NCBI GenBank assembly: GCA_963820525.1
Contig: CAWGAA010000001.1
Span: 285,299-349,298, forward strand
Direction of reading: 5' to 3'
Source of the DNA: an uncultured Spirochaetota bacterium
GTDB taxonomy: Bacteria > Spirochaetota > Spirochaetia > SZUA-6 > Fen-1364
Length of the DNA stretch: 64,000 nt
The notes under the pieces were generated by a model. It searched no databases and was not told the DNA's origin. It saw only the letters and a list, made by a program, of their open reading frames with translations. The position numbers and the translations under genes were made by a program. Positions 1-38,696 of this stretch are shown here, in pieces; positions within the stretch are counted from its first letter, which is position 1, and every line of letters starts with the position of its first letter.

Positions 1-491
1 CGCTCAGCCGGACCGACCCCATTCTCATCGCGGAAGACGGGAGAGGAGTTTTCTTGAAGGCCTCGGGCCACATCCGCGCCCTCGACTGCTACCCCTTGCG
101 CGAAGAGCTGCTTTCCCGGCTGGACTGCCCGAAGTCCCCGACCGCCGTCTTCATAGAGCTTTCCGACTGCCGATACATGGACTCCACGTTCATCGGCCTC
201 CTCGTCGCCATGGACGGGAGGTTGAAGAGCCACGGCGGGAGGCTCCGCGTTTTCAACCCGTCCGCCGAATGCCTCGAATCCTTGGGCCGTCTCGGGCTGG
301 ACAGGGTGCTGTCTGTCGAGCATGGCCCCCTGGAGCTTCCTCCCGGATCGCGCCCCCTGCCCTACCGGGGGAGCCCCGGGGCTGAGTTCGTTCTGAAAGC
401 CCATGAGGCCCTCATGGAAAAATCCGAAGAGGCGAAAAAGAAGTTCAGCCTGCTCAAGGAGATGCTTGAGAAAAAGCTCAGGAAGGGCTAG
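1..491 (+). CDS. STAS-domain protein (anti-sigma-factor antagonist-like), 5' end truncated by window edge
   Basis: The frame is open from position 3 with no stop. It has a DSTFIGLL motif around a phosphorylatable Ser, typical of SpoIIAA/STAS. The C-terminus is a Lys/Glu-rich tail. Confidence 0.5.
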   Translation, partial: LSRTDPILIAEDGRGVFLKASGHIRALDCYPLREELLSRLDCPKSPTAVFIELSDCRYMDSTFIGLLVAMDGRLKSHGGRLRVFNPSAECLESLGRLGLDRVLSVEHGPLELPPGSRPLPYRGSPGAEFVLKAHEALMEKSEEAKKKFSLLKEMLEKKLRKG

Positions 492-28549: not shown

Positions 28550-29935
28550 ATGGCCAAGCTCTGGGACAAGGGATTCGACCAGGACGCCCTCATGGAGGCC
28601 TTCACGGTCGGCGAAGATTATTCTTTGGACTCGCGTCTGGTCAACGCGGACTGCGTGGCGAGCATGGCCCATGCCGCCATGCTGGGCGCCATCGGGATAC
28701 TGGAAAAGCGCGAGGTTGAGGCGCTGCGCCGCGAGCTGGCCGAGATCATTGCGGCCAACGCCCAGGGACGGTTCGCCATCCGCCGATCGGACGAAGATGT
28801 CCATACGGCGATCGAAAATCGCCTGACCGCCGTCCTGGGAGACGCTGGGAAGAAGATCCACACGGGAAGGTCGAGAAACGACCAGGTGATCGCCGCGCTC
28901 CGTCTCTGGACGCGCGGTTTTCTCTTCTCCTTCCAGAGAGCCTGCCTCACCCTCGTCCAGCGGCTCCTCGCGCTTTCAGAGGCGCACGCCTTGACCCCCA
29001 TGCCGGGCCGGACCCACATGCAGATCGCGATGCCGTCCTCGGTCGGGTTGTGGGCGGCCGCCTATGCCGAGGAGCTGCTCGACGACGCGCTTCTGGCCCA
29101 GGGCGCCTACGAGATATGCGACTGCTCCCCGCTGGGTTCCGCGGCAAGCTATGGCGTGCCCATTCCCCTGGACAGGGAGATGACGGCCCGGCTCCTCGGC
29201 TTCTCCCGCGTGCAGAACAATGTTCTGTACGCCAACAACAGCCGGGGGAAATTCGAGTCGATCGTGCTCGGCGCCGTGGAGCAAGCGGCTCTCACCCTGA
29301 GCAAGATGGCCCAGGACCTCATCCTCTACTCCATGCCCGAGTTCGGCTATTTCACGCTGCCCGCAGAGCTGTGTTCGGGTTCCAGCATCATGCCCCAGAA
29401 GAAGAATCCCGACGGACTGGAGGCTGTGCGTGCCAAGAGCTCTGTGATCTCCGCGGACAGGTGCGCGGTGACAGGGGCGATCCGCGCCCTGCCCAGCGGC
29501 TACAATCGGGATTTCCAAGACACCAAGGGCCCGTATTTCAGGGGATGCGAGACGGGGCTTGCCTGCCTGCGCGTGATGGACCTCACCATCGTCAAGCTCG
29601 AGGTGAACCGCGAGAGGCTGCTTGGCGCGTTCACTCCGGAGATCTTCGCGACGGATCGCGCACTCGAGCTGGTAGCCCGGGGGATGCCCTTCCGGGACGC
29701 CTACAGGGAGGTGGGCGGCAGCCTTGAAAAGCTGGCGGGAAGCGATCCCGTGGAGGCGATAAAGAAAAAGACCTCCTCCGGCGCCACGGGGAATCTCCGC
29801 CTGGATGTGGCCAAGAACGGGGCTGCGGCTCTGCTTAAAAAGGTAGATGCCGAGGAGTCGGCAAGCAGGGAAAAGATCTCTTCGCTCGCCGGAAGAGACG
29901 TCGAGCTTTTCGTGGATCCCCTGGCTCAGCGGTAG
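28550..29935 (+). CDS. argH: Argininosuccinate lyase
   Basis: Fumarate-lyase signature GSSIMPQKKNPD and 461 aa. Confidence 0.92.
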   Translation: MAKLWDKGFDQDALMEAFTVGEDYSLDSRLVNADCVASMAHAAMLGAIGILEKREVEALRRELAEIIAANAQGRFAIRRSDEDVHTAIENRLTAVLGDAGKKIHTGRSRNDQVIAALRLWTRGFLFSFQRACLTLVQRLLALSEAHALTPMPGRTHMQIAMPSSVGLWAAAYAEELLDDALLAQGAYEICDCSPLGSAASYGVPIPLDREMTARLLGFSRVQNNVLYANNSRGKFESIVLGAVEQAALTLSKMAQDLILYSMPEFGYFTLPAELCSGSSIMPQKKNPDGLEAVRAKSSVISADRCAVTGAIRALPSGYNRDFQDTKGPYFRGCETGLACLRVMDLTIVKLEVNRERLLGAFTPEIFATDRALELVARGMPFRDAYREVGGSLEKLAGSDPVEAIKKKTSSGATGNLRLDVAKNGAAALLKKVDAEESASREKISSLAGRDVELFVDPLAQR

Positions 29936-30735
29936 GTCTGGGAACCGGAAACTGTTTCCCCCGTGAGCATCACATCCCCGTTTCCCATTTGAAGGCCGCG
30001 CGTTGCCCTGACGGATCCCACCGTCAGCCTTCCCGAAACCGTGGACAGGTCGTAGCGAAGCCCGTCGAGGGCGTTCACCAGATCCATCCTGATCTCCCCC
30101 GAGACCGTCTTGAAGTACGAGCTCGCCGTGAGCAGCACCCGGTGGCCGCTGATGGACCCGGAGATGCTCGCCGCCCGGATCTTTCCCTCGACGTCGTTCA
30201 TCTCGATGGGGCCCGACACGGTTGAGAGGTCCGCATCCCCGCGGATTCTCCGTGCTTCGAGGCTGCCGGAGACGCTGCCTGCGGTTACCGCCGCTTCGAT
30301 GTCGCGAATGATGAGGCGGCCGGAGGCCGATCTGGCCTTGAGCTCGTCTGCCGACAACCCCGTGATGCGGATGTCGCCGGATGCGGAATCCACCGTGACA
30401 AGGGTATCCCTCGGGACGCTGAAAAAGAGAGTGCCGCTGCCGTGGGAAAAGAGGCCCTCCCGCTCCACCCAGACGCGAACGCCCGAGCCGTTTACCTCGT
30501 GCTTCACCGTGAAGCTGCGCGATTCGAAAAAGGAATCTTCGGGCAGGTCTGCTCGCATGGAAACGGAGCTTCCCTCTCCCCCCCTGATCTCGACATTGAG
30601 GAACTCCGCCCGGATTTCCAGGCGGTCGATCCCCGGATAGGAGAACGAATCATCTTCGCGGGCCCCCGAGGCCGAGGCAATGGCGGTGCCCAGCGACAAG
30701 AGCGATACCAGGGCGAACAGAAACGATTTCTTCAC
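29926..30735 (-). CDS. DUF4097-family putative adhesin/beta-helix lipoprotein
   Basis: Has a signal peptide and repetitive G-x-I/V-R-I/V beta-strand repeats. Confidence 0.6.
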   Translation of the reverse strand: MKKSFLFALVSLLSLGTAIASASGAREDDSFSYPGIDRLEIRAEFLNVEIRGGEGSSVSMRADLPEDSFFESRSFTVKHEVNGSGVRVWVEREGLFSHGSGTLFFSVPRDTLVTVDSASGDIRITGLSADELKARSASGRLIIRDIEAAVTAGSVSGSLEARRIRGDADLSTVSGPIEMNDVEGKIRAASISGSISGHRVLLTASSYFKTVSGEIRMDLVNALDGLRYDLSTVSGRLTVGSVRATRGLQMGNGDVMLTGETVSGSQTYR

Positions 30736-30842: not shown

Positions 30843-31838
30843 ATGAAAAGCGAAGCCCCGGCCGCGGAGGACCTTGAGCTCCTCGACGCCTACTCGCAAG
30901 CGGTTATCCAGGGCGCCGCCACGGTGAGCCCGGCGGTCGTCCATATCGAAGTTTCGGGCAAATCCCAGCGCAGGGCATTTGCCGGCCTGCCTGACGAGCG
31001 GCACGGCACCGGCTCGGGATTCATCTTCACCCCGGACGGGTTCATCCTCACGAACAGCCATGTGGTGCATGGGGCGGGGAGGATCGACGTGAGCCTTCCC
31101 GACGGCCGGCGCTTCTCCGCGGATCCGGTGGGCGAAGACCCCGATACCGATCTCGCGGTGATCCGCGTCTCCGAATCGGGCCTCCCGGCAGCTTCGCTGG
31201 GAGAATCAACCTCGCTTCGCGTCGGTCAGCTCGTGATCGCAATCGGAAACCCCTTCGGCTTCCAGTACACGGTCACGGCGGGAGTGGTAAGCGCATTGGG
31301 GCGTTCTCTTCGTTCCCAGTCGGGACGGCTGATCGACAACGTGATCCAGACCGACGCAGCCCTCAACCCGGGAAACTCGGGCGGACCGCTCGTCACCTTC
31401 CGCGGCGAGGTGATCGGAGTGAACACCGCAATCATCCTTCCCGCGCAGGGACTCTGCTTCGCGATCCCGATCAATACGGCGCAGTACGTCGTCCCCCGCC
31501 TGATCAGGGACGGCAGGATCCGCCGGGGATACCTCGGCATCGGCGGCCAGAATGTGCCTCTCCCTCCCCACGCCGTCCACGTCCTCGGCTTGAAGGCGGA
31601 CAGCGGCGTGTTTGTCATTTCCGTGGAGCCCGCAAGCCCCGCCGAAAAGGCGGGGATGCGCGAAAAGGACGTCATAGTCGAAATGGACGGCAATCCCATC
31701 GCGTCCATCGACGATCTTCACAAGCTCCTCACGACGGAGAAGATAGGCGCTCCCACCAGCGTGACGGTGATCAGGCGCTCAGAGAGGCTGACCCTCTCTG
31801 CCGTACCTATCGAGTCCGGAAGCCTCACAACCGACTAG
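30843..31838 (+). CDS. HtrA/DegP-family trypsin-like serine protease with a C-terminal PDZ domain
   Basis: Catalytic motifs TNSHVV and GNSGGPL, followed by a PDZ domain. Confidence 0.85.
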
Positions 31839-33643
31839 AGCAGGCCGCGAGCGGAGCCGATGAATCGGGCGAACTCCTCGCTGAAGGGCACCAGCTTCTC
31901 ACCTTCCCTGCGGAGATAGCCCTTCTTTTCCAGGCCCGCGCACGCGGCAAGCGAGCGGCCGGCTTCTCCAGAGCTTGCGCATTGACGGAAAGCTTCCCGC
32001 TCTTCTTCCGATGCGCTTTCGAGGATGAACTCGAAGTGCGGGCGAGTTTCCTCCCGAAAGATTTCGAGCACTTCCTGCGGCGTCGGCTTTCCCTTGTAGT
32101 CCTCTGCCCGTTTCTCCTCGGACTCGAGGTGCTCGAACCATGCGCTGCACGCCATCTGAAGGAAAAAGGGATACAGCCCGCCCATCGCGATGATCGTTTC
32201 GGCGAGCGGGGCAAGCGCGAGCCCTCGCGCCTGGGAAGGGGCTGCTATGAGCGCCTCGGCATCCTCCCTCTGAAACGGCCCGACATGATGAACCGAGAAG
32301 ATGTTGAAGAAAGGGGAGTCCGAGATCTCATGGCTGACGCACATGTCCTTGAGATCCCGGCCGGAGGCCGTGATGAAGCAGACGGACAGGCTGTTTGCAA
32401 GCGAGCGGAGGAAGGAGTAGAACTCCGGCCCGATCCGTTCGTTCTTGGTGACGCACTCGAACTCGTCGAAGAGAAAGACAAGCCGAAATCCGGCGTCGCA
32501 GGCCGCTTCGACGAACATGCGCATTCCCTGATCGTCGGAGGGAAGATCCATTTCGATCATTCCCCCGTGCTTCCTCTGCACTTCGGAAAAGACGAGCTGG
32601 AAGAACTGCCCCGAGTCCAGGGCCCGGGTCTGCTGGAAATCCACGTAGATGGGGAGATACGCGTCCGGATCTTCCAGGTAATCCAGCCGAGCCGCCGGGG
32701 AGCGCAGGTAATTGAGCAGGGAGGATTTCCCGATCCTCCTCTCCCCCACGAGCGAGACGGATTGCGGTTTCTGCGCCGAAAGGCGGCTCATGACGCGGCG
32801 CACGAGGGCCCGGCGGCCGAAAAACATTTCGGGGTGGGGAATCATGACCCTGTTGAGATAGGGATTGCCCCGGACGGGAAGCGGAGGCAGGGACGCCCGC
32901 TCGCCGCGCGTGTCGAGTCTTCCCCGAACCCTGATGCGAGGCCTGCCTGCCGCAGGCGCTGTTGGCCGCTCTGTGGCCCCGGCATCGCGGGCAGGCGCGT
33001 CGGGGGCGGCGCCTCCCTTGCGCGCTCTCCAGGACCGCGCGATCTGTTCTTCCGGCACGCCGCGCCAGTTCGCGAGGTAGATCTCGACCCGTTCCTTCTT
33101 TCCCTTGACCTCCTCGCTTCCGAGCAGTACCAGGGGAACCCCGGCGGCTTCAGTCTTCTCTTTGACGGCTCCCGAGACGAGTATCTCTTCACCATCGGCA
33201 AGGGACTCGACCCGGGCCGCCGTGTTTACCACGTCGCCGAAGAGATCCTTTTCTTCCACCACCGCCAGCCCGTAGTGAAGGCCCATGCGCACCCGCAAAG
33301 CGTATGCGGAGGATGCCGTGGCGTTATGCTTCTGGATTGCCTTCTGGAGATCTACCGTGCAATTCAGCGCGCGCAGGGGATCGTCGAAGCTCGCCATGAT
33401 CGAGTCGCCGATGGTCTTGATGATCCTGCCGCCGAAAGACTCGATTATCGGAAAGAGCAGATCGTTGTGCGTCTGCACCATCTGCCTTCCCGCGATGTCT
33501 CCCATGCGCTCGAAAAAGCCCGTGGAGCCGACGATATCCGTGAAAAGGAGAGTCACTGCCCTGGTGTGATCGGCGACGATGAGCCTGTCGATTTCCTCCA
33601 GGAGCTCTTTCCTTTTTCGCAAAAGCTCTTCGATCGTCTCCAT
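31835..33643 (-). CDS. Class III nucleotidyl (adenylate/guanylate) cyclase fused to a STAND-type P-loop NTPase
   Basis: N-terminal cyclase motifs [17 protein letters not shown] and [12 protein letters not shown]. After a Pro/Arg linker comes [15 protein letters not shown]...[17 protein letters not shown] (AAA_16-like NOD). Confidence 0.7.
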
Positions 33644-33644
33644 C

Positions 33645-34637
33645 TCATTCGATGCCTGAAAGCATTCCCTCGGTGAGCCCTGTGCGCAGAAAAGCAAGGA
33701 ACGCGGGGCTGAAGCACGCTACCTCGCCATCATGCTCCACGAGGAATCCCTGCTTGATGAGGGAACTCACATGATGGAGCTCGGATTGCCCGATTGCCTT
33801 GCCCCGGCTGACCGCCTGAAGGGGCTTGAAAGCCTCCTTCGGCAGAAGGGACACGATCTGGTGGAAGTACGGCGCCGCCGCGGGAAGAAGGACCCGCTGG
33901 AAGCCCGCATCATCGAGGGCCTCGGGATGAGCTTCCGTTGAAAACTGCGATGCAACCAGCTTTACGAGGTAGGGGGAGCTTCCGCACCATGCAACCACCT
34001 TTTGCGAGAGCGCCTCATCGACTCCGGTGAGCTTTACGAAAAGAGCCTCCGCCTCCTCGCGAGCGAGCATGCCAATCGCCAGGTTCGTGAAAATGTTGAA
34101 GAACGGCGATTCCTGGACATCCTTTACCGCACAGAGCCTCTGGAGCTCCACGAAAGAGGTCGTCACATAGGCGAGATTGTAGTTGTTTGCCATGGAGCGG
34201 AGAAACGAGAAGAACTCCAGGGGGAAAAGCTTATTCTGAGTGATGTAATGGAAGTCGTCGAGGAGAATGACAACGCGCTTTCCCGCGGCGTGGAGTCCGT
34301 CAATTGTTTTTTTCACCCTCTCGTAGGGATTTCCGCCCCCGGCCGGCATGGGGAGGAGCCCCTCGAGGCCCGCTAAAAAGGAGTCGGGATCGCGCGACAT
34401 CGCGCCGCCGGAGCATACGGGGACGAAAACGAAACGCCCCATGTCCTCCAGGAATCGCTCCTTCACGCTTTCAGCCGAGATGTACGCCAGAAGCGACGTC
34501 TTTCCGCTCTTCTTCCCCCCGATGACCGCGACGGATTGCGGTCTTTCAGCCCCGATTCGTGAGAATATCCGGCGGACCAATCCCGCGTGACCGAAGAAGT
34601 CGGAAGGGTCCGTCACCGGCGCTTCCGGATCCAGCAT
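33645..34637 (-). CDS. Stand-alone STAND-type P-loop NTPase (paralog of the ATPase module in the neighbouring gene)
   Basis: DFFGHAGLVRRIFSRI...VAVIGGKKSGKTSLLAYI, Walker B LLDDFHY, 330 aa. Confidence 0.6.
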   Translation of the reverse strand: MLDPEAPVTDPSDFFGHAGLVRRIFSRIGAERPQSVAVIGGKKSGKTSLLAYISAESVKERFLEDMGRFVFVPVCSGGAMSRDPDSFLAGLEGLLPMPAGGGNPYERVKKTIDGLHAAGKRVVILLDDFHYITQNKLFPLEFFSFLRSMANNYNLAYVTTSFVELQRLCAVKDVQESPFFNIFTNLAIGMLAREEAEALFVKLTGVDEALSQKVVAWCGSSPYLVKLVASQFSTEAHPEALDDAGFQRVLLPAAAPYFHQIVSLLPKEAFKPLQAVSRGKAIGQSELHHVSSLIKQGFLVEHDGEVACFSPAFLAFLRTGLTEGMLSGIE

Positions 34638-34649
34638 CTTTCTTCCCTT

Positions 34650-35570
34650 TCAAAACGCGTAGAACGCATAGATCGTGACGTTGGCAAACACGACCTGCAA
34701 GAGGCCGAGAAAAGGCACCGTGTTGTAGGTGGGCGGCTTGGCGAGATTTTCCGAGCCGATGACGAGGTCCGCGCGGAGAAGCTCGGCATTGGCCACGAAG
34801 CCGAAGCCGGAACGCGTCAAGAACTCCATTCTGCCGCCTAACGAGACGGAGTGGGTATAGGTGGTGAGCTTGTCGAGGCCGAACGTGTAGGAGAAGGACA
34901 TCCCTGTAGCGATCTTTTCGATACGGAATGAGGGATACCAGATGAGCCCGAGCTGGCCGCGGATCGAGTTCCAGATCGGAAGCTGCAGGGGAAAACGAAG
35001 CTCGGCATCGAGGGCGAATGATTCGTTTATATTGAAGGTATACACGATTCCCGGCTGGAGCAGCGACAGGTTCTGAAGCACCGTCGGCTCCAGGACCAGG
35101 GCCCAGAACGCCCCGATCGCATTCCTGCGCGCTGTGCGGGAAAACCGCGCAAAGTAGGCGGCCTTCACTTTCGAAAACCTTTCCAGAACGAAGGGTGGCA
35201 CTTCGGCGGGGTCTCCCAGATCGAGATCGAGGTCGATTTCCAGCCCCATGGCCAGCTGCTCATCCACCTTCTGCTCGTATCCCGGGTCCCGAAACGTGTA
35301 TGCCAGGAGAGCCGAAAGGCCGTAGAGGCGTGCTATGGACTTCGACGGACGTCTCGTGGCCGCCGACTGGTACGTTTCGATGGCCTGGGAAACGATGCCG
35401 AAACATTCCTCGTACCGCCCGGAGGCGTACAGCTCTTGAGCCTTTGCCAGCGCCTCCCCTTCGACATCAACGGTCTTTTGCTGGCCTGACTGCTGCGCCC
35501 CAAGCGGCGCGATTGCGGAGAGAAATAATGCCAGGAGAACGAGGGCAGGCGGGCTGCTCCGGGAGGTCAC
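34650..35570 (-). CDS. Secreted protein, predicted outer-membrane beta-barrel with an N-terminal TPR-like helix pair
   Basis: Has a signal peptide, alternating hydrophobic strands and a C-terminal aromatic residue (YAFYAF). Confidence 0.45.
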   Translation of the reverse strand: MTSRSSPPALVLLALFLSAIAPLGAQQSGQQKTVDVEGEALAKAQELYASGRYEECFGIVSQAIETYQSAATRRPSKSIARLYGLSALLAYTFRDPGYEQKVDEQLAMGLEIDLDLDLGDPAEVPPFVLERFSKVKAAYFARFSRTARRNAIGAFWALVLEPTVLQNLSLLQPGIVYTFNINESFALDAELRFPLQLPIWNSIRGQLGLIWYPSFRIEKIATGMSFSYTFGLDKLTTYTHSVSLGGRMEFLTRSGFGFVANAELLRADLVIGSENLAKPPTYNTVPFLGLLQVVFANVTIYAFYAF

Positions 35571-37675
35571 TTCAGCACCTCCTGTATCCGGAGCGGTGTA
35601 TCGCCCTCGCGGATGTAGATCGTGCGGCTCCTGCTATAGCCCAGGGCTTCATTCGCGATGGTAAGCGTATGCGTACCGGCCTGTACGCGGTAGGGTTTCA
35701 CGTACGGGGTGTCCAGAACGTACTTTCCGTCCAGCGAAATCCGCGCGGTTGGCCTCACGTCGAAAGTGATCCAGCCCCAGACCTCTTCGAGCGACACCTC
35801 GCTTTTGGCCTGCTCGCCGGCCGCCACGGTCGCGGTGAACGAATTGGCCCCATACCCTTCCATTTCGAGGCTGACGATGTGATCGCCGGACTGGATGTTT
35901 TCAGCGTACGGGGTTCTTTTTCCCGTGCGCTGTCCGTCCACCGAAACTTCGGCGCCGGGAGGCTGGGAATTGATGATGAGGATACCGGTGTCCTTCTCAG
36001 CCCCCCCCTGGGCGGCCTCACTCGTGCCGGCGGCCGCCTCGGAAGGGGCCGCGGGCTTGGGCTGGCCGGCGCGAGCCTGGGGGGGAGCCGTTTTCGCGGC
36101 CTCCGCCGGGAAGGGGATGCTGAAGGCGCGACGCTCGGGAGAAATCCCGACGTCAAGCTCCACCTTCTCCCCGGTCTTGAGAACCGCGATGATTCTATGC
36201 GGCCCGAGCTCGAGGGAGGGGACCTGAATGATGAGGGGATCGCGCTGCCCCTCACTCGTGAGAGCCTGCTCGTTGTCGATAGAGAGCCGATAGGGGCCGC
36301 GGTTTGCGATGAAAGTGACCCCCTTCACCAGGGGCCGCGAGGAGTCGGCGGCTGCGGCGCCGTCGGTCCGGCGCGACTGGGCTGAAGATATCCCCAGTCT
36401 CTGGGCGGCCTCGGGGAGATAGCGCGGAATCAGGAAAAACCACGAAACGAGGCCAACCGCCAACACCCCGGCGGCAACGATCGCAGCGAGGAGGGTCCGC
36501 GAGCCTTTCTGGAACTGGAGGCCGGCTTCCTTTGCCGCTTTCCAGATCGAATGCTCGCGGCGGATCCAGCGTCGAAAAAGGTCCATCTTGAACCTGTACG
36601 TCGCGCTCTCGCCCTTCTCGAGGAACTCCCCATGATACCCCTCTTCGAGCAGCACGTTCACCTGCTCCTTCTTGAAGGGAAGCACAATCCTGTTCGTCTT
36701 GATGAAATGAACTATCTGCTCGGAATCGGACCATCCCTCGGGATCCGCGAGCCTGCTGGCAAGGGATGAGAGGATGATCTGATCCCACTCGCTCACGCTG
36801 TTCCAGCTGTAGATCATCTGCGGCAGGGGGTTGTCGACGATCTCCCGAACGATTCGCTCCAGATCCTCCGCGCCGGGCTGGCCCTTCTGGTCTTCGATGA
36901 GAAGGTCGACCATGTTCTGGCAGATCACCTGCGTATAGAAAGGCTGGCCGCCGGTAAGCCGATAGATCGACTCGACCATGCCCGCCGGGTACGACACATA
37001 CTCGCGGAGGGGCTCCGTGATGAGCCGGGAGGTGTCTCCGCGCGAGAGGTACGAGATCTTTCTGTACACGGATTTGCCCAGGAGAGACTTCCAGATGTCG
37101 ACTTTCCTGTCTTCCAGGTTGGTGGAGCCGGTGAAGATGAAGGAGACCCGATATGGGCTCTCCAGTATTCCCGCAAGGTAGTGGATTGCCGATTCGCCGA
37201 GAGATCCGTCCTTGATCTTGGTTTCTATCAGCTCGTACTCGTCGAAGAGAAAAAGAACGATCCGCTCGGGTGCGTTGGCGCGCGCCAGCGCCAGAAAGGA
37301 TTCGAAGAGCCGCTCGACGCTCGGTGTTCCCGCCTCCGCCTCGAGCCTCTCCATGGAGAGGCCCCTGCTGCCCAGGGCCTCGCAGCCGGCTTTCAGGACG
37401 GATCGGAAGAAATCCAGCTCTCCACGGATGCCGGCCAGCATCTGCATGTCGATGAGGACGGGCAGAAAGACGCTCCCCAGCCTGCCGCCGAGGATCTGGA
37501 AGAGAATCGAGGTCTTGCCCGAGCGCCTTTCGCCGCAGAGCACGAGGATCTGATTGGCTTTTCCTTCCCCGATCTTCTTCGCCACGAACTGGAAATCGTC
37601 CTCGCGGCCGAAAAACATCTCCTTCGACTTTATGGGATTGCCGACGATGTAGGGATTGAATGGGATTGACTTCAT
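35567..37675 (-). CDS. Membrane-anchored STAND-type P-loop NTPase with two periplasmic PEGA-like domains
   Basis: MFFGREDDFQFVAKKI...LVLCGERRSGKTSILFQI, then one TM helix (LLAAIVAAGVLAVGLVSWFFLI), then a Pro/Ala linker and PEGA-like beta domains. An internal ATG at 37675 is chosen as the start. Confidence 0.6.
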   Translation of the reverse strand: MKSIPFNPYIVGNPIKSKEMFFGREDDFQFVAKKIGEGKANQILVLCGERRSGKTSILFQILGGRLGSVFLPVLIDMQMLAGIRGELDFFRSVLKAGCEALGSRGLSMERLEAEAGTPSVERLFESFLALARANAPERIVLFLFDEYELIETKIKDGSLGESAIHYLAGILESPYRVSFIFTGSTNLEDRKVDIWKSLLGKSVYRKISYLSRGDTSRLITEPLREYVSYPAGMVESIYRLTGGQPFYTQVICQNMVDLLIEDQKGQPGAEDLERIVREIVDNPLPQMIYSWNSVSEWDQIILSSLASRLADPEGWSDSEQIVHFIKTNRIVLPFKKEQVNVLLEEGYHGEFLEKGESATYRFKMDLFRRWIRREHSIWKAAKEAGLQFQKGSRTLLAAIVAAGVLAVGLVSWFFLIPRYLPEAAQRLGISSAQSRRTDGAAAADSSRPLVKGVTFIANRGPYRLSIDNEQALTSEGQRDPLIIQVPSLELGPHRIIAVLKTGEKVELDVGISPERRAFSIPFPAEAAKTAPPQARAGQPKPAAPSEAAAGTSEAAQGGAEKDTGILIINSQPPGAEVSVDGQRTGKRTPYAENIQSGDHIVSLEMEGYGANSFTATVAAGEQAKSEVSLEEVWGWITFDVRPTARISLDGKYVLDTPYVKPYRVQAGTHTLTIANEALGYSRSRTIYIREGDTPLRIQEVLK

Positions 37676-37811
37676 CTCTGACACCGAGTATAGCACAGAT
37701 GCAGCCGATTGCCACTGCAGAGGACGGCGGGCTCCCGGCCAAGACCTTCCGGCGGCACCCTGGTGAATTGAAAAAAGCCGTGCTATATTCTGGACAGTAA
37801 GAGCAAATGAC

Positions 37812-38696
37812 ATGAAAAAGAAAAATCTCGTGACACTGGTTCTCCTGTTCGCGGCAGTCGCTTTGCTGTCCGCCGAAAAGATCTCCATCGACTACCTCGA
37901 TGGGACGGTGGAGCTGAAGACGGCGAAGGGCTGGGCACTCCTTTCCATCGGTGACACGATCCCCACCGATGCGAGCGTTCGGGTCTCCAAGGGCGGCTCG
38001 TTGGAGCTTTCCAGCGGAACCCAGCGGATAACGCTCCTGAAAGATGGGGTCTACGCCGTCGCCGACCTCTTGAAAGCCGGTGGGAAGAGCGGAAAAGCCG
38101 GCATTGGAGTGGCTCTCACGCAAAAGCTGCACTCTATGACGGCCGAAAAGGAGCAGCAAGGCACCGTGGCGGGCGCACGTGGCGCGCAGCAGGGGCAGGG
38201 AGCGGACGTCCAATGGGTCGACGAAAACGAGGAAACCCGGGCGACTGTGAACGACCTGTTCGAGAAAGGCAAGTACGCGGACGCGGTGTCCATCATCAAG
38301 GGGGCGATCGCGGACGCGTCGACCAGCGATGAGAGGAAAGAGCTCAGCTACCAGCTTGCCGTCGCGTACTACGGATCGGGGAAAACGGCGCTCGCGTTCC
38401 GCACGGTTTCCAAAGTCTCCCCCGCGGTGACGGTGGGATACTACCCCGATTTCATGATCCTCAAGGCAAACATCCTCCTGGACAGCGCCGCTTACAAGGA
38501 CGGGCTTGCGGTGCTCGGCGAGTTCCTCAAGACCAAGCCGCAAAACTCGTACGCCCAGGTGGCGTACCTGCTCTCGGCCGAGTGCTCGAGAGGGCTGGGC
38601 GACGAGAAGGCTTCCGCGGAGGCTTTAAAGACCGGCTACGCGCTGGATCCGCAGAGCGAAACGGCGAAGCAGATCTCCGACATGCAGGGCAACTAG
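37812..38696 (+). CDS. Secreted FecR-like/TPR-like protein
   Basis: Has a signal peptide, a FecR-like beta segment and a C-terminal helical repeat. It is divergent from the STAND operon. Confidence 0.5.
   Translation: MKKKNLVTLVLLFAAVALLSAEKISIDYLDGTVELKTAKGWALLSIGDTIPTDASVRVSKGGSLELSSGTQRITLLKDGVYAVADLLKAGGKSGKAGIGVALTQKLHSMTAEKEQQGTVAGARGAQQGQGADVQWVDENEETRATVNDLFEKGKYADAVSIIKGAIADASTSDERKELSYQLAVAYYGSGKTALAFRTVSKVSPAVTVGYYPDFMILKANILLDSAAYKDGLAVLGEFLKTKPQNSYAQVAYLLSAECSRGLGDEKASAEALKTGYALDPQSETAKQISDMQGN

Follow-up and report, generated by a model that had tools for sequence, protein, structure and literature searches.

A spirochaete operon of paralogous STAND-type NTPases, a cyclase, and an outer-membrane protein as a candidate trans-envelope signalling cassette

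What could join a nucleotide cyclase, three related NTPases, and a predicted outer-membrane barrel in a single operon? The question is raised by four tightly packed, co-directional genes on the minus strand of a 64,000-nucleotide (nt) stretch of contig CAWGAA010000001.1 (positions 285,299 to 349,298; hereafter, the window), which comes from an uncultured bacterium of the Spirochaetota. We refer to these genes as A (membrane-anchored NTPase and putative receptor), B (predicted secreted outer-membrane protein), C (solo nSTAND2 NTPase), and D (adenylate cyclase-nSTAND2 fusion). An initial annotation of the window, made from the DNA letters, had proposed that they form an undescribed envelope-spanning module for signalling or for defence. 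Comparative genomics supports the signalling half of that proposal and suggests that the cassette carries out trans-envelope signal transduction with paralogous STAND-type (nSTAND2/ATPase_2-like) NTPases as the transmitters, a reading that we favor with modest confidence. We favor it because relatives of the cassette keep a constant pair of paralogous NTPases, one of which is anchored in the membrane and carries swappable sensors, while the other is fused to enzymes that are activated by dimerization.

Sequence comparison confirmed that the NTPases of A, C, and D are paralogs. C and D are 27% identical across the whole module (E 8e-37), and BLASTP aligned the NTPases of A and D at 28% identity over 288 amino acids (aa; E 7e-15). 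Both C (71.1 bits, 1.2e-19) and D (129.5 bits, 1.9e-37, aa 290-551) match the Pfam nSTAND2 model (PF20702), which has a curated gathering score of 24 bits and reaches up to 232 bits in relatives. The NTPase of A has no dedicated Pfam family; the nSTAND2 model does not match it, and the ATPase_2 model covers aa 21-246 with 24.7 bits (2.3e-5), below the cutoff of 33.2. Recognizable motifs include NPY, FFGRE, Walker A GERRSGKT, Walker B LFDEYE, and the helical motif GQPFYTQ in A; Walker A GGKKSGKT, Walker B LLDDF, an invariant ESPFFNIF, and a C-terminal winged helix in C; and NPYLNR, FFGR, Walker A GERRIGKS, GxYPFFLQ, and a winged helix in D. Among complete sequences the Walker A consensus G-x4-GK[ST] is intact throughout (62/62 A-type, 26/26 C-type, 85/85 D-type), A, C, and D each retain the acidic residues of Walker B, and all three NTPases are predicted to be active. 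The motif (D/E)SPFFNIF is invariant in C-type and D-type NTPases across phyla and absent from the A-type; a role as partner interface is one possibility. It occupies aa 176-183 of C (nt 34089-34112) and aa 442-449 of D (nt 32297-32320). 

An AlphaFold2 (AF2) model of C (42 homologs; predicted local distance difference test [pLDDT] 90.2, predicted template modelling score [pTM] 0.85) comprises a P-loop core, a helical domain, and a winged helix, and the (D/E)SPFFNIF segment is its sole lower-confidence loop (pLDDT ~59-68), located before the last core strand. In a fold search, PAB2304, SSO1545, and plant NB-ARC proteins aligned with the model along 245-275 residues, and a sequence profile of the C and D types recovered SSO1545 only from the PDB, over the full length (5.7e-5); single-sequence searches with A and with the NTPase of D returned no solved structure. 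As modelled, the C-type module has the tripartite architecture of STAND and ORC proteins. Fold scores alone do not separate the nSTAND2 module from ORC/Cdc6, and we apply the STAND label because of the Pfam assignment and of Kaur et al. 2021 (PMC8195603), where nSTAND2 is described as MNS-like. Neither C nor D has a C-terminal TPR, WD40, or LRR sensor arm detectable with Pfam, both ending at the winged helix, and in A the position of the arm is taken by the transmembrane (TM) helix and the ectodomain. The ~300-aa C-terminal region of D, which the initial annotation had set aside as a possible sensor or effector, is instead the nSTAND2 module itself (Pfam aa 290-551, with the winged helix running to the end). 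Beyond the cyclase and nSTAND2, D has no Pfam match at E<=0.1 to a sensor, an effector, a TPR, or a LuxR helix-turn-helix (HTH), the last of which had already been noted as missing. The other domain assignments made at the outset, namely STAND-type NTPases, PEGA domains, cyclase, and barrel, were borne out by Pfam, the TM scan, and AF2 modelling.

Of the three NTPases, that of A is the one joined to the membrane. Basic residues lie on the N-terminal side of its single TM helix, and the NTPase is therefore placed in the cytoplasm with the PEGA region outside. Pfam matches PEGA in two stretches (3e-18), the better of them at aa 564-631 (nt 35783-35986), and a third beta-rich segment (~aa 445-520), followed by a Pro/Ala-rich linker, presumably completes the ectodomain. 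An exhaustive search of 1.84 billion representatives returned 759 clusters (50% identity) with this NTPase module at E<=1e-30, and in that set it always sits at one end of proteins of 400-1578 aa. The TM helix adjoins the NTPase in 13 of the 14 A-type relatives checked, whichever end the NTPase occupies. What varies is the ectodomain. A Pfam census of 52 sampled A-type proteins recorded PEGA in 17, CarboxypepD_reg in 15, Reg_prop in 11, Y_Y_Y in 7, and Kelch, Peripla_BP_6, and PD40 in 2 each. Spirochaetia, KSB1, and Latescibacterota have PEGA; Blastocatellia, CarboxypepD_reg with a Reg_prop propeller; Eisenbacteria, a Kelch propeller; and Acidobacteria, Peripla_BP_6/ANF_receptor. These swappable domains are the ectodomains of classical bacterial sensors. 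On the D-type side the output also changes, being a Ser/Thr kinase, a cyclase, or a kinase plus a cyclase.

The cassette is conserved. Full-length orthologs of D number more than 90 (50-65% identity), and all of those with a source name come from metagenome-assembled genomes (MAGs) of Spirochaetia or Spirochaetales; distant homologs (~38% identity) carry an extra N-terminal Ser/Thr kinase. The four genes are co-conserved in the order A-B-C-D at 17 of the 18 Spirochaetia loci with enough flank, the remaining one being without C. Shared flanks (UvrD, methyltransferase, HAD, and TPR genes on one side; HtrA, DUF4097, and ArgH genes on the other) are common to the three closest relatives only and differ elsewhere; therefore, the conserved unit is the cassette rather than the region. 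The core formed by A and D extends to more than eight phyla. Of the 46 loci that have 4.5 kb or more to either side, 41 hold an A-type gene, and the distance from it to D never reaches 2.7 kb. In Calditrichia the order is A, a barrel gene, C at some loci, and a kinase-cyclase-nSTAND2 fusion; in Cloacimonadota a cyclase-nSTAND2 gene is followed by C and an A-type gene of ~1480 aa; and in Acidobacteriota, Blastocatellia, Eisenbacteria, Latescibacterota, KSB1, Krumholzibacteriota, and others the A-type gene adjoins a kinase-nSTAND2 or nSTAND2-kinase gene. The distance matrices of the A and D NTPases are correlated (r = 0.86, with none of 2000 permutations as high), both in non-spirochaetes (r = 0.91) and in spirochaetes (r = 0.81), which shows that A and D diversified together.

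The enzyme at the other end of the pair appears to be a catalytically complete adenylate cyclase. The catalytic domain of D, which is preceded by a conserved N-terminal helix (aa 1-23), matches Guanylate_cyc in Pfam with 75.9 bits (4e-21; cutoff 21.9), and its closest solved structures are the mycobacterial adenylyl cyclases Ma1120 (1.4e-23) and Rv1900c/LipJ (3e-17). Class III cyclases are recognized by the motifs FTDIxxST, KTIGD, and GDxVNxAxR. In an alignment of 16 diverse homologs (38-65% identity), D36, K76, D80, D133, and N140 are invariant and R144 is nearly so (>=90%); from these motifs we take D36 and D80 to bind metal, K76 and D133 to select adenine, and N140 and R144 to stabilize the transition state. 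The specificity residues, which the initial annotation had singled out for checking, are thus the Lys/Asp pair that denotes ATP. The region between GLHxG and DLFGD is short and therefore fits class IIIc. On this basis the cyclase of D is predicted to be active, homodimeric, and ATP-specific, with cyclic AMP (cAMP) as its product. A variable, low-complexity linker of ~65 aa (aa 190-259) connects it to the NTPase.

B is a small OmpA-like outer-membrane anchor with a periplasmic TPR-like module, as judged from an AF2 model built on 34 homologs (pLDDT 80, pTM 0.69). It has the features of OmpA/OmpW-like proteins, with a signal peptide, eight antiparallel strands, and a C-terminal aromatic residue, and its C-terminus, YAFYAF, is typical of barrels. 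No Pfam family matches it, and all 50 of its database homologs are unannotated proteins of ~300 aa. In several phyla a gene between A and D likewise encodes a secreted protein that ends in an aromatic residue, resembling the C-terminal Phe of outer-membrane proteins. This protein is 309-312 aa long in KSB1 and two unclassified MAGs, 433-444 aa long in Calditrichia (Phenol_MetA_deg, 4.7e-6), and 265 aa long in Latescibacterota, where it contains TPR and DUF5683 domains and adjoins an A-type protein with four PEGA domains. The coordinates of all of these features within the window are collected in Table 1.

Table 1. Positions of the cassette genes, their predicted domains, and adjoining features in the window
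Feature	Residues (aa)	Position (nt)	Strand	Basis or remark
Gene A, membrane-anchored A-type NTPase, putative receptor	702	35567..37675	-	Open reading frame (ORF), Pfam, TM scan
A, cytoplasmic NTPase module	1-390	36506..37675	-	BLASTP to D NTPase, sub-threshold ATPase_2
A, single TM helix AIVAAGVLAVGLVSWFFLI	398-416	36428..36484	-	Hydropathy scan
A, extracytoplasmic region with two PEGA beta-sandwich matches	417-702	35570..36427	-	Pfam PEGA
Gene B, predicted secreted outer-membrane protein	306	34650..35570	-	ORF, AF2 model
B, signal peptide	1-25		-	Sequence
B, TPR-like helical domain, five helices	36-141	35148-35465	-	AF2 model
B, predicted 8-stranded barrel	150-305	34656-35123	-	AF2 model
Gene C, solo nSTAND2 NTPase	330	33645..34637	-	ORF, Pfam
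Gene D, adenylate cyclase-nSTAND2 fusion	602	31835..33643	-	ORF, Pfam, alignment
D, class III (IIIc-like) cyclase catalytic domain	24-189	33077..33574	-	Guanylate_cyc
D, nSTAND2 NTPase module	260-602	31838..32866	-	Pfam and alignments
Promoter-like site GTGGCA-17-TATACT with TG extension		37687..37715	-	11 nt upstream of A start codon
Divergent secreted TPR protein, signal peptide	294	37812..38696	+	TPR_19 1.2e-5

How might such a cassette work? Class III cyclases and Hanks-type kinases are switched on by dimerization. We propose that A would act as the receptor, with its PEGA ectodomain in the periplasm, one helix through the inner membrane, and an ATP-binding NTPase in the cytoplasm. B would serve as the outer-membrane anchor, its TPR-like domain perhaps touching the PEGA domains, and through this contact the condition of the outer membrane or cell wall, or the presence of a ligand, would be reported. 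Upon stimulation, the NTPase of A would switch to an ATP-bound, assembly-competent state and nucleate a membrane-proximal hetero-oligomer with C and D, in which C, having no output domain, would be an extra subunit that serves as adaptor or regulator. Assembly would allow the flexibly tethered cyclase domains of D to dimerize and convert ATP to cAMP, which would then act on receptors encoded elsewhere. In the closest relatives the divergent TPR protein might also help to connect the PEGA ectodomain with the outer membrane. In other phyla the A and D core has other ectodomains and a Ser/Thr kinase as its output, an enzyme likewise activated by induced proximity. We infer the A-C-D assembly, the A-B contact, the direction of signalling, and the cAMP product from sequence comparisons.

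Several observations weigh against this model. The correlated trees of A and D can arise from joint inheritance in an operon, with no need for contact. A cAMP receptor was not found among the genes around the cassette. C is missing from three loci, one in Spirochaetia (SPRUCE 495, L007) and two in Calditrichia (L023 and L026), all of which retain A, D, and the barrel gene; the cassette therefore does not depend strictly on C, whose role would be dispensable or variable. In other phyla, several A genes of the PEGA type are not separated from D by a barrel gene, and the sequence homology of B to the barrels that do occur there is weak or absent: a hidden Markov model built from 18 spirochaete orthologs gave best E-values of only 2e-4 and 3e-3 in a 30-sequence database. 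We treat those barrels as positional analogues of B, and their recurrence as a recurrence of position. Finally, paired nSTAND2 genes have been read as conflict systems in Aravind-type analyses (PMC8195603).

The main rival to trans-envelope signalling is a cyclase that is regulated from the cytoplasm. The NTPases would then respond to a cue from inside the cell, for example a metabolite or the ATP/ADP ratio, and A would only tether the complex through PEGA and B. STAND NTPases such as MalT do respond to cytoplasmic ligands, neither C nor D itself carries a sensor domain, and the barrel of B, with its short loops, is a minimal anchor. PEGA itself has been proposed to associate with peptidoglycan rather than to bind ligands (PMC7159879). 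This explanation has difficulty with the A-type proteins of relatives, whose ligand-binding modules (Peripla_BP_6/ANF_receptor, Reg_prop with Y_Y_Y, and Kelch propellers) are hard to account for as anchors. We consider it unlikely, yet the most probable of the alternatives.

A role in antiphage defence, the second half of the original proposal, fared worse, and we regard it as improbable. In such a system the paired STAND proteins would sense an invader, the cyclase would raise a nucleotide alarm as in Pycsar or CBASS, and the envelope proteins would be effectors or sensors of attack. STAND proteins and cyclases do recur in defence systems, the cyclase of D has a weak match to PycC (7.8e-8), and the definition of nSTAND2 comes from a two-gene system that was predicted to counter invaders (PMC8195603). 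Beyond that match, PADLOC models gave nothing meaningful for A, B, or C, only noise at the level of the P-loop (E>=0.013), and the NCBIfam model DS8_antiphage reached 11-15 bits (E 0.003-0.06) against a cutoff of 790. In the cyclase, the Lys/Asp pair is of the purine type and the class III motifs are canonical. Pfam scans of the cassette, the flanking genes scanned, and relatives revealed no effector of the cyclic nucleotide (cNMP)-binding, pore, nuclease, TIR, HEPN, or GT4 type. All P-loops are intact, unlike those of the described nSTAND2 system, and the variable parts of the family are the ectodomains of classical environmental sensors, with kinases and cyclases as outputs. The cassette is moreover kept across the spirochaete clade, its G+C content (0.59-0.61) matches that of its surroundings (~0.61), and a search for plasmid or phage copies found none. 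Least probable is an envelope machine in which the ATPases power assembly, transport, or inner-outer membrane tethering and the cyclase is a side regulator, for although one operon does unite an inner-membrane ATPase, periplasmic domains, and an outer-membrane barrel beside HtrA-like and LiaG-like DUF4097 envelope-stress genes, a single TM helix makes a conduit impossible, the NTPase fold is a switch of the ORC/STAND type rather than a transporter or motor, and the cross-phylum core consists of A and a kinase or cyclase fusion, often without a barrel.

The layout of the locus fits an operon, with some amendment to its first description. The four ORFs are present at the coordinates and on the strand originally assigned, and public contigs that encode identical proteins, on which genes were called independently, have them at the same lengths. 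They had been reported as joined by overlaps of 0-4 nt; this holds for A and B, which overlap by 4 nt, whereas B and C are separated by 12 nt and C and D by 1 nt. The ATG at 37675 is supported as the start of A by ortholog alignments that begin at residue 1. The promoter-like site upstream of A is the sole sigma-70-like match in 31500-38200, where 1.2 would be expected by chance, and we regard it as a weak lead to a real promoter. Three long ORFs that are antisense to or overlap the operon (31982-33676 and 35195-36385 on the plus strand, 36252-38543 on the minus strand; 396-763 aa) were rejected as high-G+C artefacts, because the sense-strand products have hundreds of conserved homologs.

Across a divergent intergenic region of 136 bp from A lies the gene for the secreted protein that had been described as FecR/TPR. 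Its signal peptide and TPRs were recovered, but Pfam found no FecR match. Only L001, L002, and L008, the closest relatives, have it adjacent to the cassette, and it is possibly an accessory outside the conserved core. On the other side of the cassette, an HtrA-like protease with Trypsin_2 and PDZ domains (30843-31838, plus strand) converges on D, the two gene ends overlapping by 4 nt, and a secreted LiaG-like protein with a DUF4097 "toastrack" domain (Pfam 3.4e-15, NCBIfam LiaG 3.4e-14) is encoded downstream of D at 29926-30735 on the minus strand. Both are genes of the envelope-stress type, and only L001, L002, and in part L008, the closest relatives, have them beside the cassette.

Relatives of the cassette show further variation. 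At five Acidobacteriota loci (L040, L044, L051, L059, and L062) the NTPase is at the C-terminus of the A-type protein and the order is D, a gap of 1.3-1.8 kb, and A; in L040, the one subjected to the TM scan, the ~300 residues before the NTPase are polytopic, with ~9 TM helices and no Pfam match. The A-type proteins of ~1480 aa in Cloacimonadota (L035, 6459-10895; L036, 3674-8143) have an extracytoplasmic region of ~1000 aa, which had no Pfam match in L035, the one scanned. Just upstream of three A-type genes (L046, 296-1033; L076, 2-811; L085, 3857-4891) are proteins with shared Pro-rich ends (PLPGPPAPP, PLPKPPDPP), those of L046 and L076 having a hydrophobic N-terminal segment, and these may represent another recurrent accessory. 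The Latescibacterota locus L056 (2523-10820) contains two D-type genes, one C-type gene, an A-type gene with four PEGA domains, and the 265-aa TPR and DUF5683 protein, an arrangement that suggests local duplication and a B-like partner from a different barrel family. Database annotations of the family are generic ("class 3 adenylate cyclase," "ATP-binding protein," "serine/threonine-protein kinase"). In JGI, many solo C-type proteins of ~330 aa without a kinase domain are labelled as serine/threonine-protein kinases, probably a misannotation propagated from kinase-nSTAND2 fusions.

If trans-envelope signalling is indeed the function, its implications reach beyond the window. Signalling censuses list histidine kinases, chemoreceptors, receptor Ser/Thr kinases, membrane cyclases, diguanylate cyclases, and anti-sigma factors as the main routes across the membrane; STAND ATPases, which until now have been known as switches in the cytoplasm and as immune sensors, would be an additional one. 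We tentatively suggest, with less assurance than for the cassette itself, that the A and D pair is a distinct and previously unrecognized class of transmembrane signalling, a "STAND relay," in which a receptor P-loop NTPase would recruit kinase- or cyclase-fused paralogs and activate them through nucleotide-dependent hetero-oligomerization. Such a relay would be an outward-facing bacterial counterpart of the induced proximity of apoptosomes and resistosomes, extended to the outer membrane in some lineages by a barrel/TPR partner, and would mean that NLR-like induced proximity serves ordinary environmental sensing. The family is sizeable and occurs for the most part in phyla that have received little study (Spirochaetota, Calditrichota, Acidobacteriota, Latescibacterota, and Eisenbacteria). 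The signalling reading would account for the function of hundreds of proteins annotated as "AAA ATPase," "adenylate cyclase," or "Ser/Thr kinase," and would provide an entry to cAMP signalling in free-living spirochaetes. The case also cautions that not every STAND and cyclase neighborhood is a phage defence system.

How does the cassette compare with systems already known? A literature search (full text and supplement; subscription journals lay outside its scope) found no description of cassettes that combine a receptor NTPase with a kinase- or cyclase-nSTAND2 fusion. Pycsar uses a homologous cyclase fold; however, the best PADLOC match of D to PycC (29.8 bits) is far weaker than that to the generic cyclase model, the cyclase is of the purine type and is fused to an NTPase, and A, B, C, and the flanking genes scanned have no Pfam match to an effector with a cNMP-binding domain. 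Compared with Avs and other bacterial NLR-like STAND proteins, the cassette has no match to a defence model, and no N-terminal nuclease, protease, TIR, or SIR2 effector was found. The archaeal ATPase_2 (PF01637) proteins PAB2304 and SSO1545 (15-16% identity) stand alone, without membrane anchor, cyclase, or kinase fusion. Mycobacterial cyclases of the Rv0386 type consist of a class IIIc cyclase, an ATPase, TPRs, and a LuxR HTH. Like D, they carry a class IIIc-like cyclase at the N-terminus and a STAND-type NTPase after it on the same chain, but D has neither TPRs nor a LuxR HTH and ends after the winged helix, its NTPase is of a different family (nSTAND2), and it sits in an operon with two paralogous NTPases, one of them membrane-anchored.

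Ectodomains like those of the A-type proteins are found in classical TM receptors, among them hybrid two-component sensors with Reg_prop/Y_Y_Y and receptor kinases or cyclases of the periplasmic binding protein type, while FecA-FecR and RcsF-IgaA are trans-envelope relays. The cassette resembles the former in joining a variable sensor outside the cytoplasm, through one membrane span, to a cytoplasmic transmitter that controls a kinase or cyclase, and the latter in an outer-membrane partner that may feed in. It differs in the transmitter, which would be a P-loop NTPase pairing with paralogs instead of a histidine kinase, HAMP domain, anti-sigma domain, or fused enzyme. The closest described entity is the two-gene nSTAND2 system (Kaur, Iyer, Burroughs, and Aravind, eLife 2021; PMC8195603), in which a STAND gene is followed by an inactive nSTAND2 fused to a winged HTH, TPRs, and HEPN or GT4, and which was described as mobile and predicted to counter invaders, with a hetero-oligomer of the paralogs proposed. 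Both systems have adjacent, co-directional MNS-like STAND genes (C and D are adjacent, A and D adjacent or near in 41 of the 46 loci), and they share the domain family, through C and D, and the idea of paired paralogs. In the two-gene system one partner has eroded NTP-binding motifs, whereas all P-loops of the cassette are intact; and where the former has GT4 or HEPN effectors and TPRs, the scanned A, C, and D proteins and their relatives have none of those and carry Guanylate_cyc or Pkinase fusions. The two-gene system is described as mobile; the cassette extends across the Spirochaetia clade, with flank synteny in the closest relatives only, and its partner is a predicted transmembrane receptor with sensor ectodomains, often accompanied by an outer-membrane protein. 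The cassette is thus best filed as an undescribed form of STAND-based signalling built on a catalogued domain family.

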